Under the pieces are notes generated by a model. That model was not told the DNA's origin. It worked only from the letters and a program-made list of their open reading frames with translations, and made no database searches. Positions 21,719 to 28,766 of a stretch of 32,717 bases of DNA are shown here, in pieces (position 1 is the first letter of the stretch; each line of letters opens with the position of its first letter). The DNA comes from a virus. Its lineage: Duplodnaviria; Caudoviricetes. The position numbers and the translations under genes are program-made. The DNA lies in the IMG/VR virus record IMGVR_UViG_3300032277_000044, positions 1 to 32,717 of that record; one strand, written 5' to 3'.

Positions 21719-22279
21719 TTAAGCTTCCTTCGGTGGTCGAGTTCCTTCAGCTGATGCAAACATGATCTCATCTCTCAACTTCTCATCAGTGATCATATTC
21801 TCAGCAAGTTCATCAGGACTATAAGACTGACCAATGATCTCGGGATATACTGCTCTTAATAATGCTGTCAAACATCTCTTATGAAGCATTGACTTTCTCA
21901 TAGTCTTCCAAGCACGTTGCTTCAACAATCCACGCTTGTCAGCATCTTCAGCAGTGAAGGTCCAAGTGTGTTCAATATCAAAGTCAAGTTCATCTCGTCG
22001 CTTGGTGCCAATGATGCAGCCATCTTCAGTCAACTCAATGACTCGAATGTATGCACAGATTTTGACTCCATCAGTATCAGTATAACGTCGTACAACTCCA
22101 CACATTGCATCGGCATTGAGTGCAGGTTTGCCGCTGATCACATAAGTATTTGCAAGTGTGACAGCAACATTATTCTCAAAGAGATGGCCGAACGTTAAGA
22201 ACGCTTTAACATTGTCATCGAAATCGTTGTTGTTTTTACTGAGGTTTTGAATTAGTGTAATAGTATCTTGATTTAACAT
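21719..22279 (-). CDS. RecT-like single-strand annealing recombinase
   Basis: Motifs GKPALNADAM and FTAEDADKRGL...WKTMRKSMLHKRC...YPEIIGQSYSPDEL. AAGGAG RBS before the ATG at 22279. Confidence 0.7.
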   Translation of the reverse strand: MLNQDTITLIQNLSKNNNDFDDNVKAFLTFGHLFENNVAVTLANTYVISGKPALNADAMCGVVRRYTDTDGVKICAYIRVIELTEDGCIIGTKRRDELDFDIEHTWTFTAEDADKRGLLKQRAWKTMRKSMLHKRCLTALLRAVYPEIIGQSYSPDELAENMITDEKLRDEIMFASAEGTRPPKEA

Positions 22280-22305
22280 TTGTTTGCTCCTTTTTATGAG
22301 TGTGA

Positions 22306-22680
22306 TTAAGATCGATATATTGAGGTGAGTAACCAACGGACTTGATCTTGTGTTGCTCCCCTCACGTTGTTTTCATATACAACGACGAGCTTCGCAAAGT
22401 CTCGACCGTCCAGGCAGGTAATCTCAGCAGGGAATTCACCTTGCTCAAATAAAATATTATCAGCATTGCTTTCAATAGATTCTTTTGTGATCTTGCCTTG
22501 GTTCAAAAGATATTGAATGTCCTCATCTTCTTTTTCTTCGATGCGCTTCATTGCTTCAAAGATTGCCAAGGTGACATCATGATTGATCACTCTTGAATAC
22601 TTGCTGATTGTGATTGGCTCCTTTTCTTCTAACATGAAAAGAATAGCGATGATTAAAACTGCGATGATTGCATATAACAT
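22306..22680 (-). CDS. Hypothetical protein with an N-terminal TM anchor
   Basis: Hydrophobic start MLYAIIAVLIIAILFML, GAGGAG RBS, acidic soluble domain. Confidence 0.6.
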   Translation of the reverse strand: MLYAIIAVLIIAILFMLEEKEPITISKYSRVINHDVTLAIFEAMKRIEEKEDEDIQYLLNQGKITKESIESNADNILFEQGEFPAEITCLDGRDFAKLVVVYENNVRGATQDQVRWLLTSIYRS

Positions 22681-22905
22681 TTAAAGCTCCTCGATAAGTG
22701 TGTCATTGATGATCAAGTTGATGAGTTCAAAGTGATCAAGTTCGTGCTCGTTGCCTTGGCTGCCTTGTAAGAAATAAGAATAAACTTTCATAGATGGTGC
22801 TTTGAATTGATGCATGATGCATTCCTCCATTTGTTTAATCTCAAAGATCTCATCATTATTGAGATCAAGAAAACGATCACCGACTTGAAAAGGAATACTA
22901 TTCAT
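22681..22905 (-). CDS. Small acidic hypothetical protein
   Basis: 74 aa, ATGA-coupled to the HTH gene, FQVGDRF start. Confidence 0.6.
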   Translation of the reverse strand: MNSIPFQVGDRFLDLNNDEIFEIKQMEECIMHQFKAPSMKVYSYFLQGSQGNEHELDHFELINLIINDTLIEEL

Positions 22906-23123
22906 TGGTCTTCATCCTTTCTAAAATCATTAAGAGTAAGTTGAATGCCAGTCATATCTTGAAGACTGTCAGCGATTCTCAAAGCTGTATGCATTTTCAT
23001 TGTTTGACTTCTCAAGTAATTTGAGAGCCTTGGTTGTGTGATATTCATATTCTCAGCAAGTTGAGTCATAGTGTATCCCTGACTTGCTAAAGAAGATTTG
23101 ATTCGTCGTTTTAATCTGCTCAT
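22902..23123 (-). CDS. XRE/Cro-type HTH transcriptional regulator (Aca-like position)
   Basis: Helix-turn-helix GYTMTQLAENMNITQPRLSNYL; 73 aa stand-alone domain; GGAG RBS. Confidence 0.85.
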   Translation of the reverse strand: MSRLKRRIKSSLASQGYTMTQLAENMNITQPRLSNYLRSQTMKMHTALRIADSLQDMTGIQLTLNDFRKDEDQ

Positions 23124-23124
23124 G

Positions 23125-23613
23125 TTATTGCTCCAACATGCTTGAAGTTACATCAATCAAAAGATGCTCTTTGTTAATCATATTAATAATATAAACAGTT
23201 CCTTGCTCATCTTCACTTTGAAAACAAAGTGCGCCTTGTGCCTTAGCTGCTTTGGCTTGTATGCCTTGCAAGAACCAAGAGAAGTCAGCCCGTGCTTCCC
23301 AATTCTCTTGAGCTTGCTCACATTCCCAAATCGTTAAGTCTTCGCATAGATAATCCATCGCTTCATCATCATCAATGTTGCAATCAAAGTATGTGTCGAA
23401 TCTATCTTTGATCTCATCAATGATATCTTGATTGTATTCAAGATCCCAAGCAGTAATGATTTGAGAATCATCGACATCAATCGAATAGACAAATCCCTGT
23501 ACAGTCGTAAAGTAAAGATCTTGACTGAAGAACAAGGCTCCCTGAAATTCGTTATGAATATAAAAGTCTTGAATCTTAGTAATTTGATTTGGGCTTGTAT
23601 GAAGTAGTTTCAT
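23125..23613 (-). CDS. AcrIF11-like ADP-ribosyltransferase (candidate anti-CRISPR/anti-defence)
   Basis: Motifs LLHTSP, FQGALFFS and SWFLQ...AKAAKAQG...EDEQGTVY parallel AcrIF11 (LFHGS, FGGLF, WELQ...LG...EDEHGTTW, recalled from memory). Very acidic, first gene after the promoter, GAGGAG RBS. Confidence 0.7.
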   Translation of the reverse strand: MKLLHTSPNQITKIQDFYIHNEFQGALFFSQDLYFTTVQGFVYSIDVDDSQIITAWDLEYNQDIIDEIKDRFDTYFDCNIDDDEAMDYLCEDLTIWECEQAQENWEARADFSWFLQGIQAKAAKAQGALCFQSEDEQGTVYIINMINKEHLLIDVTSSMLEQ

Positions 23614-23635
23614 TGTTGCTCCTCGTTTGTGATGA

Positions 23636-23740
23636 TCAAGTATTAGAATAATATATTTACTTTGTCAAATAATATTTTATAAAAAAGAAAATAAAATATT
23701 TTGTTGACAGAATTACTTATATTATACAATATGATTGAAT
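23636..23740. promoter_or_regulatory. Back-to-back sigma70-type promoters with an AT-rich inverted repeat
   Basis: TTGACA on the minus strand (23663-23668) and plus strand (23704-23709). Arms TGTCAAATAATATTTTAT / ATAAAATATTTTGTTGACA flank an A-tract. The -10 boxes are imperfect. Confidence 0.7.
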
Positions 23741-23760: not shown

Positions 23761-24522
23761 ATGAACGAATTTGAACTTCAAGCTCAGATCATGAAGGCAA
23801 GAGACATTAAGCCTGCTGATAAGTTTGTCATGTTGGTGATCTTGAAACATGTGGATTGGACGACATGGACTGGACGAATCACTCAGACATATCTTTGTCG
23901 ATATGCTGATATACCAAGGGCGACGTTTTCAAGAGCAATGAAAAGATTGAAGGCTGCAGGTTGGTTGACTGTGGATTGTGATCGAACTGCATTCAATAAG
24001 TTTCAAACTACAATCAAAGTAAATATCGATAGTATCAAAATGATACAACCGTTGTCTCAAAATGAGCCTATCGATAGTATCAATATGATACAACCGTTGT
24101 CTCAAAATGATAACACCGTGTATCAAAATGATACAGGGTTGTCTCAAAATGATACAGGGTTGTCTCAGAATGATGCATATATCAATATAAACAATATAAA
24201 CAATAAAGATATCAATATAGATATCAATAAGGAGGATCTTGAATTTGTGACAAAAGAAGAAGCAATAGAATATACTTCAAGTCAAGACTTCAATAATCTA
24301 TCTCATGTGTGTGATGATCGTGACAAGGTTCCTCTTCATGTCTTAAAAGCAGTACATCGAAGACTTGAGATTGAAAGACGTTGGGCACATCATCACAAGA
24401 CGATTGAAACAAATGCATTCAATGAAAGACGAATCTTTGAAGCGTTCAAGAAAGCAGAGATCAGAGAAGACTTTGATTTGTATGGATCAACTGCACAGAT
24501 CAAAAAGACTTGGAGGTCATAA
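23761..24522 (+). CDS. Replication initiator protein (lambda O-type organisation, N-terminal winged HTH)
   Basis: HTH ITQTYLCRYADIPRATFSRAMKRLKAAGWL, internal SQND repeats encoded by iterons, followed by a DnaC-like gene. AAGGAG RBS. Confidence 0.8.
   Translation: MNEFELQAQIMKARDIKPADKFVMLVILKHVDWTTWTGRITQTYLCRYADIPRATFSRAMKRLKAAGWLTVDCDRTAFNKFQTTIKVNIDSIKMIQPLSQNEPIDSINMIQPLSQNDNTVYQNDTGLSQNDTGLSQNDAYININNINNKDINIDINKEDLEFVTKEEAIEYTSSQDFNNLSHVCDDRDKVPLHVLKAVHRRLEIERRWAHHHKTIETNAFNERRIFEAFKKAEIREDFDLYGSTAQIKKTWRS
24024..24230 (+). repeat. Replication origin: seven iterons plus an AT-rich unwinding tract
   Basis: TCAnnnTGA cores (mostly TCAAAATGA) at 24035, 24057, 24080, 24102, 24123, 24144 and 24165, then an AT-rich run at about 24176-24230. 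Confidence 0.8.
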
Positions 24523-25421
24523 TGGATAGATTAGGAGATAGTCCAGAGCTAAAGAATTTATTAAATTCATTAACAGAGTTTATTCAAGATCCAAATAGAG
24601 ATCGAGTTGAAATGCCAAAGGATCAAGACTGGTCGAACTTCAATCCCGATTCATATCATCTACATGATTTAATAAAAGCAGGTATGAATCGATGCATTGC
24701 AGTAAATGAACCTCCTTGCCATTGTGTTGAAGGATATGAATTTGTGAGAGAAGGCAATGGCCCCAATGCAATATCATGTCGTAATTGTGGAAAGTTGAAG
24801 AAGTCTCTTAATCTATTATTGAGATCTCAACTTCCCAATGATGCTTTGACTGCTGCTCTTTCTGAATATGAATTCGATAGTCCACTTCAAGAGAATGCAT
24901 TCAATGAAATGATATCTTGGGATCGAGTTACACAACCTCCATCTTTCTTAATGCATGGAAGACCTGGCAATGGTAAATCAAGTCTCTTATACATTATTGC
25001 AAAGCATAAGACCTCCCAAGGATTCAGAGTAAAGTATGCTCATCATTATAGAACATTCGAAGCAGAGAAAGATTCTTGGTCAGACAACGCTTCTAAATCT
25101 CACTTAAATCAATTCTTGAATGATGTTGAGGTTCTTCTATTAGATGAGTTCGGAGGACTTGGTGGAGGGGTCAACAAGTATTCGGATTGGTTCAAGAACA
25201 CAACGATCGAATTTATTGGTTCAATATATGAACGATGGAAGTCGGGTCGAATGTCTGTCATCTTCACAACGAATGTATATCCGGCTTTACTCAGAGATAA
25301 GTTATTCGAAGGAAATTATGCAGCTCTATCGAGAATGCAAGAGATGTTCCAACAACCGATTGAAATGACTGGTCGAGATCGAAGAAGCCCACTGAACAGA
25401 ACTTCAGTTTGGGGTCAATGA
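24522..25421 (+). CDS. DnaC/IstB-like AAA+ helicase loader
   Basis: Zn-binding N-terminus (CHC...CRNC), Walker A GRPGNGKS, Walker B LLLDE, IFTTN, SRMQEM, GRDRR. GGAGG RBS and TAATG overlap give the start at 24522. Confidence 0.85.
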   Translation: MDRLGDSPELKNLLNSLTEFIQDPNRDRVEMPKDQDWSNFNPDSYHLHDLIKAGMNRCIAVNEPPCHCVEGYEFVREGNGPNAISCRNCGKLKKSLNLLLRSQLPNDALTAALSEYEFDSPLQENAFNEMISWDRVTQPPSFLMHGRPGNGKSSLLYIIAKHKTSQGFRVKYAHHYRTFEAEKDSWSDNASKSHLNQFLNDVEVLLLDEFGGLGGGVNKYSDWFKNTTIEFIGSIYERWKSGRMSVIFTTNVYPALLRDKLFEGNYAALSRMQEMFQQPIEMTGRDRRSPLNRTSVWGQ

Positions 25422-25853
25422 AAATACTTTAATATTATTTGACTCAAGATAGTGGACACCATGCAAAGAATATCCACTCGATGAGCAACCAACAGACTTG
25501 ATCCCGGCATGATGAATTAACTTAGCACATGCAAGGCAAGGAGGAATGCTGATGATCATTGTTGTTCCTTCAAGCCCAACACCCTTTCGAGCAGCGTTCG
25601 CAATTGCATTCTGTTCAGCATGATGACAACCGATCTCTGTTCTTGTGCCTGATTCGATCTTCATAATATCTCGAGCACATTCATGATCATCACTGCAAAG
25701 ACTTGATGAAGACTTTCGAGGAGGGCCGTTGAACCCTGCGCTGATTGGATTATTATTCTTATCAATGATGAACGCTCCAACTCGAGCGCGTGGACAAGGT
25801 GACATCGATGATATAAGTTCAGCATGTTTCAGCCAGTGCTTGACCCATTTCAT
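25404..25853 (-). CDS. dCMP deaminase
   Basis: Motifs SPCPRARVGA, GFNG, HAEQNAI and PCLAC. Confidence 0.92.
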   Translation of the reverse strand: MKWVKHWLKHAELISSMSPCPRARVGAFIIDKNNNPISAGFNGPPRKSSSSLCSDDHECARDIMKIESGTRTEIGCHHAEQNAIANAARKGVGLEGTTMIISIPPCLACAKLIHHAGIKSVGCSSSGYSLHGVHYLESNNIKVFSLTPN

Positions 25854-26338
25854 GTAAGTCTCTCTTTTAATCTTCTTCTGAGATTCTGATGTCGTCCATG
25901 TATTGTCTCAACTTTAGACCGGTACCGTTCAGCAATCTCACGAAATAAGAATCCACGAATCAACATGTTGATGACATCAAGTTCATATTCACTTTCTAAA
26001 TGTTTGATCACTGATTCATATAAAAGATTTGCATCATCAAGATCATATGAACGAGAGGCCATTGATTTGTATTGAGTGTATGATTTGTTTTTCTCAATTC
26101 TTGTCTTATGACTTCGAAGCATATTCATATGGGTTCTAGTCATGACAACTTTGACAAAGTTCAAGAAGTGGGATCCTTCCTTTTGTGCATATCTTTCAGG
26201 CTTCGCAATCAGCTTGATACAGGTGTCTTGAAATAGGTCGTCGGCTTCGATAAATGAATCCCTTGTCATCTTTCGAGCAATCATTTGAATAAAGTTTAAA
26301 TGATCAATGATCAGTTGATTCATGATTTCACTAGTCAA
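25850..26338 (-). CDS. ECF-type sigma-70 family RNA polymerase sigma factor
   Basis: Region 2 ADDLFQDTCIKL and region 4 GFLFREIAE...TIHGRHQNLRRRLKE; 162 aa; TTG start with a GGAGG RBS. Confidence 0.8.
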   Translation of the reverse strand: MTSEIMNQLIIDHLNFIQMIARKMTRDSFIEADDLFQDTCIKLIAKPERYAQKEGSHFLNFVKVVMTRTHMNMLRSHKTRIEKNKSYTQYKSMASRSYDLDDANLLYESVIKHLESEYELDVINMLIRGFLFREIAERYRSKVETIHGRHQNLRRRLKERLT

Positions 26339-27812: not shown

Positions 27813-28285
27813 ATCCAAAAGACTTGACTGAATTCGGAAGGCGAGAAGCTATGAGTCATAATAATGATACAAATGAAACACAGTCCTTGCGTACACGTAA
27901 GATTCAGCCTTACAAATATTCTGATGATGTCGCAATGGTGATCTGTACTTACTTGAGAAAGGGATGCACCATCGAAGCATCTTGTCAAGCGGCGAACATC
28001 GGACGAGCAACATATTATCGTTGGATGGATGAGATACCTGAATTCAAAGAGTTCGTGAATGCTACTGAGTCAGATGTTGAAGCAACACTCCTCGACGAGA
28101 TCAGAGAAAGTCTTGACTGGAGGGCAAAAGCTTGGATACTCGAAAGACGCTATCCGCAACGATGGGGAGTCAAGAGAGAACTTGAGGTCAGCGTGACAAA
28201 GCAAACAGGAACCGACGTGGTTCATGGAATGCTAGCAAATATTTTAAAACAAGAAAGCACTGATGACTTGAAGGAGGAATCATGA
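27809..28285 (+). CDS. terS: Terminase small subunit
   Basis: HTH GCTIEASCQAANIGRATYYRW and DWRAKAWILERRYPQRWG motif, upstream of terL. Start at 27809 by ATGA overlap with ssb. Confidence 0.75.
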   Translation: MNPKDLTEFGRREAMSHNNDTNETQSLRTRKIQPYKYSDDVAMVICTYLRKGCTIEASCQAANIGRATYYRWMDEIPEFKEFVNATESDVEATLLDEIRESLDWRAKAWILERRYPQRWGVKRELEVSVTKQTGTDVVHGMLANILKQESTDDLKEES

Positions 28286-28682
28286 AACCATTGAATATAG
28301 ATGTTCTTAGAAACTGGAAAGTATCAAGATTGGCAAAGCACTTGCAAAGATTAAAAGATGTTCATGAGTCTCCATGTGGTGATCCATATGATTTATATTA
28401 TGATGTCGGTCAAGAAAGTGCATTGTATAAAGTAAATGAGGATTCAAGCTCTTTGTATAAACTTACTGCACGAAGTCATTGTGATCTTTATGATTTGTTT
28501 CAAGGTGAGGAGGGTTTTTTCACACTGACATTTAGTGATAAGCAAATAGAAGAAAATACAAGAGAATTATATCAATATGAATATTATTGTGATGTTACTA
28601 AATCGGACAAAGACATGATCATACAAGCCATAAAAGAGTCATATGATTACAGCAAGGATAATATTTTAAAACAAGAAAGCAC
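28238..28682 (+). repeat. 23-bp direct repeat pair AATATTTTAAAACAAGAAAGCAC
   Basis: Identical copies at 28238-28260 and 28660-28682. Confidence 0.9.
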
Positions 28683-28701
28683 CGACGATTCAGAGTCGTG
28701 A
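28282..28701 (+). CDS. Hypothetical acidic protein inserted between terS and terL
   Basis: 139 aa, GGAGG RBS; ends in the same NILKQESTDD sequence as terS. Confidence 0.65.
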   Translation: MKPLNIDVLRNWKVSRLAKHLQRLKDVHESPCGDPYDLYYDVGQESALYKVNEDSSSLYKLTARSHCDLYDLFQGEEGFFTLTFSDKQIEENTRELYQYEYYCDVTKSDKDMIIQAIKESYDYSKDNILKQESTDDSES

Positions 28702-28766
28702 AGAATCGCCAGTGCTTAATGTATCAACAAGAAATGATAATATAATATGAATATTAGGAGTAGTCA

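Follow-up and report, generated by a model that had tools for sequence, protein, structure and literature searches.

An optional AcrIF11-family gene in front of a core HTH gene in an uncultured family of tailed phages

Two AcrIF11 proteins have solved structures, AcrIF11_Pae1 (PDB 6KYF) and AcrIF11_Pae2 (PDB 8DWQ; 10.1101/2024.08.26.609590). In AcrIF11_Pae2 the double mutations H20A/Y46A and D146A/E147A each abolish both the ADP-ribosylation of Csy1 and the protection of the phage, and the S22A/E25A mutant keeps its activity (10.1101/2024.08.26.609590). The residue modified in the known system is N250 of Cas8f (PMC8120803). A known acr-aca operon is that of Halomonas caseinilytica, where acrIF11 comes first, a small HTH gene, aca7, lies directly after it, the promoter is of the sigma-70 type, and Aca7 binds a 19-bp inverted repeat within that promoter (PMC12658196). 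Small HTH genes that share a short-gene operon with an Acr homolog are what the AcaFinder rule of guilt by association selects (PMC9765179).

How does a similar gene pair in an uncultured aquatic phage compare with these systems? The window analysed here is a stretch of 32,717 nucleotides (IMG/VR record IMGVR_UViG_3300032277_000044). Protein family scans recognised terminase, portal, tail and replication genes in it, so that it represents most of a tailed-phage genome, and it also encodes a ribonucleotide reductase, ThyX, a dCMP deaminase, a sigma factor, an O-like initiator, a DnaC-like loader and a RecT-like protein. Its end falls inside the portal gene, and about 4 kb carried by relatives is absent from it; with that part missing, no integrase was recognised among the 39 window proteins scanned. 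The features of the region are given below, and the place between the leftward ribosome-binding site and the HTH gene is called the slot.

24510..25421, plus strand: DnaC-like helicase loader
23761..24522, plus strand: O-like replication initiator, divergent from the slot
23704..23709, plus strand: another TTGACA, oriented towards the replication genes and a candidate -35 box for rightward transcription, seen in several relatives
23671..23700, no strand: A/T-only inverted repeat between two back-to-back -35 boxes
23640..23668, minus strand: candidate leftward promoter, TTGACA (23668-23663), 17 bp, TAATAC (23645-23640)
23619..23624, minus strand: GAGGAG ribosome-binding site, of acrIF11 here and of the HTH gene in sisters without acr
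23127..23618, minus strand: optional cassette, the stretch missing from acr-less sisters, which begins inside the ribosome-binding site and ends where the HTH gene starts
23125..23613, minus strand: AcrIF11-family ADP-ribosyltransferase, 162 aa, by family model, fold match and catalytic residues
22902..23123, minus strand: XRE/HTH_3 regulator of 73 aa, encoded by a core gene in this family of phages and predicted autorepressor of the leftward operon
22681..22905, minus strand: 74-aa gene with variable alleles, a homolog of which occupies the slot itself in L156/L157
22306..22680, minus strand: 124-aa gene with a hydrophobic N-terminus, kept after the HTH gene in close relatives
21719..22336, likely start 22279, minus strand: RecT-like annealing protein, last gene of the leftward operon

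Several neighbouring segments are variable or repetitive. At 22710-22901, within the 74-aa gene, runs X1 and X7 as well as L103/L104 have a divergent allele instead, and the ESM Atlas matches of this gene are only viral clusters without names (best 0.90). The replication initiator gene contains direct and inverted repeats at 24024-24160 that are probably origin iterons, and sister phages have a different initiator allele of 60% identity. The sigma-70/ECF-type factor at 25850-26338 is more variable than its neighbours, with 61-68% identity in sisters, and is undetected in some of them. A second variable slot lies between the small and large terminase genes (28282-28766), which holds a 647-aa gene in L121 (5310-7253) and a 220-aa gene in L120 (6358-7020).

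The initial annotation had taken the first gene of the leftward operon for a very acidic AcrIF11-like ADP-ribosyltransferase. The 162-aa frame at 23125-23613 on the minus strand does carry LLHTSP (residues 3-8), FQGALFFS (23-30), WFLQ (113-116) and EDEQGT (134-139), and it is indeed very acidic, with 32 D+E against 8 K+R and a pI of 4.05. The family model, the sequence match to solved homologs, the predicted fold and the catalytic residues all agree with that assignment. The NCBIfam AcrIF11 model NF052490 gives 94.7 bits over profile positions 1-142 of 142; as this is nearly twice the curated cutoff of 50, the label "divergent" given to the enzyme was too strong. Against the PDB, phmmer finds 8DWQ at E 3e-14, and a profile of 16 sequences finds 8DWQ at E 1.5e-30 and 6KYF at E 4e-6. 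An AlphaFold2 model of the protein has a pLDDT of 90. When it was compared with known structures by Foldseek, as had been proposed at the outset, the AcrIF11 folds 8DWQ and 6KYF came out on top and were the sole matches at E <= 0.001 (4.1e-7 and 2.4e-5). They were also the sole matches at Z >= 8 in VIA (Z 10.1, rmsd 2.9, 119 aligned; Z 9.8, rmsd 3.9, 145 aligned); the next match had Z 7.0, and RES-type and diphtheria-type transferases ranked below the pair. The predicted fold is thus the diphtheria-toxin-like ART fold of 6KYF and 8DWQ.

By alignment to 8DWQ, residues H5, Y34, D135 and E136 are the equivalents of H20, Y46, D146 and E147 of AcrIF11_Pae2. No variation is seen at these four positions among the 16 close homologs, and over 152 aligned rows (149 representatives) H is kept in 146, Y in 144, and D and E in 149. 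In structural alignments the protein is about 30% (30-32%) identical to AcrIF11_Pae2, with which it aligns over its full length, and about 20% identical to AcrIF11_Pae1. It shares with both of them the predicted fold, the H/Y/D/E set, an acidic helical region and a phage-borne gene; E25 of AcrIF11_Pae2, one of the two residues changed in the mutant that keeps activity, is replaced by Q10. Unlike AcrIF11_Pae1 and AcrIF11_Pae2, it comes from a clade whose carriers are phages of an uncultured family. PF26151 was assigned to 14 of 16 homologs of the enzyme; a Pfam scan of the enzyme itself gave no match, nor did a PADLOC scan of the enzyme and the slot genes. Membership in the AcrIF11 family is established by these sequence and model comparisons, and from it we infer the activity and the target of the enzyme.

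Is the gene a constant part of this phage family? A viral-contig search with the single acr sequence returned no relative, and a search based on an alignment did find relatives: the alignment scans gave 29 viral, 72 metagenome and 7 genome loci. Eight family members have acr in the same slot (L001, L002, L003, L008, L032, L033, L034 and L044). Scans with HTH and DnaC found acr-less sisters as well, namely L102, L103 and L104, whose HTH is 99-100% identical, and L111, whose HTH is 62% identical. The alignment of L102-L104 with the window ends at 23126 and restarts at 23614, and these three acr-less phages agree with the window at 105-108 of the 110 promoter bases and at 208-220 of the 222 bases of the HTH gene. 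In the acr-less sisters, the HTH gene starts directly after the same ribosome-binding site. For a count unselected for acr, the best 80 of 333 relatives in a terminase scan were considered, of which 25 span the slot region and the other 55 are too short: acrIF11 is present in 1 of the 25, the slot is empty in 17, and it holds other small genes in 7, where several of the loci are near-copies and the profile used to detect the HTH derives from members of the family.

The same alternation is seen within samples. Eight public runs were examined, labelled microbial mat, seawater, freshwater and viral metagenome, and in three of them (X5, X7 and X8) contigs that carry acr and contigs that skip it occur together. 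The acr-less joints run from 23126 to 23619/23622, and the short side of the joint covers 126 bases in X5 and just 30 in X7 and X8. Thus the slot shows precise presence and absence of acrIF11. On a DnaC tree of 24 hand-chosen loci, of which 6 have acr, 13 have an empty slot and 5 have other genes, it takes 5 changes to account for the acr label, and well-supported branches force no fewer than 3 of these. The acr of L003 is 87% identical to that of L001 at a DnaC identity of 59%, and it is 59% identical to that of the window at a DnaC identity of 84%; these mismatches in sequence identity point to exchange of acr between phages. Members of the same acrIF11 clade also occur elsewhere in the genome, immediately upstream of the portal gene (L004:808-1341, L035:5001-5465, L036:1321-1854), and no match to the family HTH was found in these three loci.

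A consensus TTGACA promoter with an inverted repeat inside it had been proposed in front of the operon. The -35 part of this claim holds, with TTGACA 55 nt upstream of the acr ATG; the -10 box matches its consensus at 4 of 6 positions only. A promoter scan of the window is weak evidence by itself, with 27 sites against 18.6 +/- 4.0 in shuffled sequences. Of the 21 family promoters examined, 20 have retained TTGACA, and 16 of the 20 have TA at 17 bp from it; T stands at -7 in 1 of those 16. In promoters of this TTGACA-17-TA form, T is commoner one base further on than -7. Variant -10 boxes are TATAAT at 15 bp in L003 and TATAGT at 18 bp in L156.

The inverted repeat exists, with 10-bp arms and a 10-bp spacer at 23671-23700, and it lies upstream of the -35 box, consists of A/T only and is not conserved. 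Its arm length is equalled by 6 of 300 shuffles and its GC-weighted score by 15 of 100, and it is located in a spacer of 22% GC. It is imperfect in L102-L104 despite their HTH being 99-100% identical. In one comparison all 4 runs have a change at arm base 23696, and the repeat is unchanged in X2, the sole run of a second comparison with a long contig across it. It is therefore not the kind of repeat expected for an Aca operator, which would be conserved and overlap the core promoter; the HTH protein may have another operator. Note that it lies between two back-to-back TTGACA boxes, so it reads more likely as the upstream A/T tracts of two promoters than as an operator. A search for operators with 6-bp arms found none in the window, in L102-L104 or in L001. 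The family is not uniform in this respect. The intergenic region L008:4883-5000 lacks TTGACA and contains a 6-5-6 inverted repeat twice, both copies being perfect, and on sequence these copies are the best candidate operator for the HTH family; repeats are found at a -35 box in L111, L131, L133 and L139.

There is a further question of concern, whether the HTH gene is a new Aca. As described initially, a stand-alone HTH gene of 73 aa (22902-23123) follows on the same strand 1 nt after the acr stop. Its product matches Pfam HTH_3 with 25.2 bits against a cutoff of 23. It passes the AcaFinder rule, being small, stand-alone and in an operon with acrIF11, which is the part of the new-family proposal that stands. 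What weakens the proposal is that 24 of the 25 HTH loci are without acrIF11, that acrIF11 genes of the family also stand before the portal gene in L004 and L035, where no match to the family HTH was found, and that the flagged repeat is not conserved. Among the best 80 of 333 terminase relatives, the HTH gene is present in 25 of the 25 loci spanning the slot. The HTH gene is a syntenic core gene of this uncultured phage family, and a new, dedicated Aca family is weakly supported. By convention an Aca is named when it stands beside two or more unrelated validated Acr families, and the sole Acr family recognised beside this HTH is AcrIF11. None of the 16 PDB matches of the HTH profile at E <= 0.05 is a named Aca, nor is any of the NCBIfam matches. 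The best PDB matches are generic XRE proteins (the SinR N-domain, DdrOC and ICEBs1 Xre); the HTH protein resembles these stand-alone regulators in sequence and has no peptidase domain. Lambdoid phages have a divergent control region, and the layout here is like it, with the HTH gene between a recombination operon and O-like/DnaC-like replication genes.

The gene order is also that of acrIF11-aca7 in H. caseinilytica, acrIF11 first, a small HTH gene directly after it and a sigma-70-type promoter; the difference is that the flagged repeat of the window lies upstream of the -35 box, and Aca7 binds within its promoter (PMC12658196). Small HTH-like genes also lie directly downstream of unrelated acrIF11 loci (L013:428-604, L018:2892-3056, L026:5474-5659, L017:5428-5634 and L114), and in L014, L017, L026 and L114 the promoter repeats are strong and the loci resemble ordinary acr-aca operons. 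In the incompletely covered literature on marine AcrIF11 phylogeny, on anti-defence hotspots and on co-option of Cro or early-operon genes as Aca, no description of the locus was found.

We favour the reading that the locus combines an optional acrIF11 behind a promoter-like sequence, whose product likely ADP-ribosylates Cas8f, with a core HTH protein that likely represses the operon; as a whole it seems moderately likely. The best of the other readings is that the HTH protein is a true Aca, that the whole leftward operon serves anti-defence, including the genes after the HTH gene, and that acr-less members carry other cargo. Besides the AcaFinder rule, it draws on the finding that known Acrs neighbour just 15% of 2599 Aca-like homologs (PMC9410906), so that acr-less copies are compatible with an Aca, and on the prediction that Aca proteins control operons of other anti-defence genes (PMC13551039). 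Several unrelated small genes enter the slot, and the two perfect repeats of L008 would suit an operator. Against this, the gap between promoter and HTH gene is empty in 17 of 25 loci, and the operon runs into the RecT-like recombinase and faces the replication genes, which is the position of a general phage regulator. Moreover, strong inverted repeats precede 3 of the 21 operons of this family, compared with 7 of 13 hand-picked control loci with acrIF11 from outside it, and no second known Acr family was recognised among the slot genes beside the HTH gene. We regard a true Aca as possible and somewhat doubtful; it is compatible with either target of the enzyme.

What does the enzyme modify, and in which host? 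The acr genes of the phage family form one clade (SH-aLRT 97, 20 of 84 rows), and the acr genes from named gammaproteobacterial genomes lie outside it, in a tree built by a quick method in which the two solved homologs are not among the 84 rows. Relatives of acrIF11 from named genomes share 31-37% identity, and none of them is from this phage family. The terminase found 5 cultured records, all distant and none covering 80%, and the best matches of RNR, ThyX and RecT stay below 50% identity and come from scattered taxa; these host searches found no closely related phage that is cultured or linked to a genome. One clue comes from the promoters, as T at -7 occurs in more than 90% of gammaproteobacterial promoters and in fewer than 40% of alphaproteobacterial ones (PMC8407463). 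The scarcity of this T in the family promoters is a weak hint of a non-gammaproteobacterial host, drawn from related promoter sequences with predicted start positions.

The AcrIF11 domain is used more widely than in stand-alone Acrs, since it is also fused into larger proteins. A profile search with the enzyme found 510 representatives at E <= 0.001, some inside proteins of 400-2660 aa. Of 14 longer proteins scanned, two have polyvalent-protein domains (P0123 and P0147) and one has a zeta-toxin domain. AcrIF11-like domains lie within the larger proteins P0123, P0147, P0061, P0074 and P0110 and in L024:5001-5984, and the partner domains in such proteins are LPD38, PBECR3, ART-PolyVal, LPD1, zeta-toxin, InPase or DUF5661. 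Since the domain occurs inside large polyvalent proteins, the window enzyme may have other targets.

One alternative is therefore an active AcrIF11-type transferase that acts on another host protein, of another CRISPR type or defence system, in a host outside the usual gammaproteobacterial range. The family-specific acr clade, the scarce T at -7 and the fusions into P0123 and P0147 speak for it, as does the poor conservation of the helical region that is proposed to set target choice (10.1101/2024.08.26.609590). The same source reports that both characterised homologs, which are about 27% alike, modify Csy1/Cas8f, and that Csy1 alone was detectably modified by AcrIF11_Pae2 in cells, which argues against it (10.1101/2024.08.26.609590). 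The full-length alignment with AcrIF11_Pae2 argues in the same direction. The promoter argument is tempered too, as it uses related sequences with predicted starts, among which L003 and L156 have TATAAT and TATAGT at other spacings. Type I-F is also present in Zymomonas. We consider another target unlikely.

Another reading, to our mind equally unlikely, gives the HTH protein no role at this promoter, so that acrIF11 would simply head an early operon that is not repressed. In its favour, no conserved operator is seen in the window or in the sisters with identical HTH, and acrIF11 stands before the portal gene in L004 and L035 with no family HTH match in the locus. Against it, the HTH position is kept in all 25 loci, and the relatives L008, L111 and L131/L133/L139 have inverted repeats at their promoters. 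Finally, it is extremely improbable that the acr is a decaying, inactive remnant, as the absence of acr from most sampled family members might suggest, because its frame and catalytic residues are intact, intact homologs exist at 42 to 99% identity, and the gene is present with few differences in several independent runs.

The favoured reading, an optional acrIF11 and a core repressor, can be put as a sequence of events. The leftward promoter would fire right after DNA entry, so that acrIF11 is transcribed early. The enzyme would bind NAD through H5/Y34 and D135/E136, recognise the assembled Csy complex, possibly by its acidic helical region, and ADP-ribosylate Cas8f of the host type I-F CRISPR complex, which would block target binding. 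The HTH protein, which may repress the acr promoter as predicted, would then accumulate and damp the operon. It likely controls the operon with or without the enzyme gene, and when acrIF11 is present it would do the job of an Aca without being a dedicated acr partner. Taken separately, NAD-dependent modification of Cas8f that blocks target binding is quite likely, and feedback repression by the HTH protein is likely; the lower confidence in the whole follows from the target being taken as the main doubt. The locus is largely a known kind of gene in a variant arrangement.

Then what else enters the slot? A 98-aa gene is found in L152/L153 (L152:3672-3968), and a 93-aa gene together with a homolog of the window 74-aa gene in L156/L157 (L156:4592-4873). 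A slot gene family of 79-146 aa is common to L158 (4635-4886), L033 (5468-5707) and L165 (3779-4219), and a pair of 66-70-aa genes in the slot is common to L165 (3576-3776) and L197 (1958-2170). In L197 a 119-aa pentapeptide-repeat protein (2186-2545) is the first gene of the early operon. Apart from this pentapeptide repeat, no family could be assigned to the other slot genes, and ESM Atlas gave no usable match for the slot gene of L158. By their position these genes are anti-defence candidates.

How the slot genes move may be seen in two relatives. The 79-aa gene of L033, which is missing from the otherwise similar L034, is flanked by a repeated ribosome-binding-site/start sequence, and L156 has a similar, longer repeat. 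Recombination at such repeats may move slot genes in the family, and the repeats are clear in L033 and L156 only. A specific repeat as boundary of the window cassette was rejected, as 304 of 465 gene-start pairs in the window reach at least the score of the acr/HTH pair; since the starts in the window are alike only at this background level, the recombination is proposed for the family and not for this cassette. A comparable process is PeSL-mediated modular shuffling, a repeat-driven exchange of small early genes in T4-type phages (PMC2839356). In both cases small non-essential genes are gained and lost behind strong early promoters at repeated regulatory sequences; unlike in that described system, the repeats here are short copies of the ribosome-binding site and start codon, and there is no promoter-terminator cassette (PMC2839356). 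A bolder reading would take the slot as an exchangeable anti-defence cartridge in a non-gammaproteobacterial host, with the AcrIF11 clade retargeted off Cas8f, the replacing genes (L033/L158/L165, L152, L156, L165/L197) as new anti-defence proteins and the core repressor recruited as an Aca; in this full form we hold it to be quite unlikely.

The locus calls for caution in guilt-by-association mining, because a rule that asks for an acr plus an HTH gene would name a new Aca here, yet the HTH gene is a core gene that is mostly found without acr. The coexistence of near-identical phages with and without acr in the same samples means that the cost and benefit of an enzymatic Acr are trackable in natural populations. 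What is more, the slot gives a short list of small proteins that replace acr in this phage family and are directly testable as anti-defence candidates.
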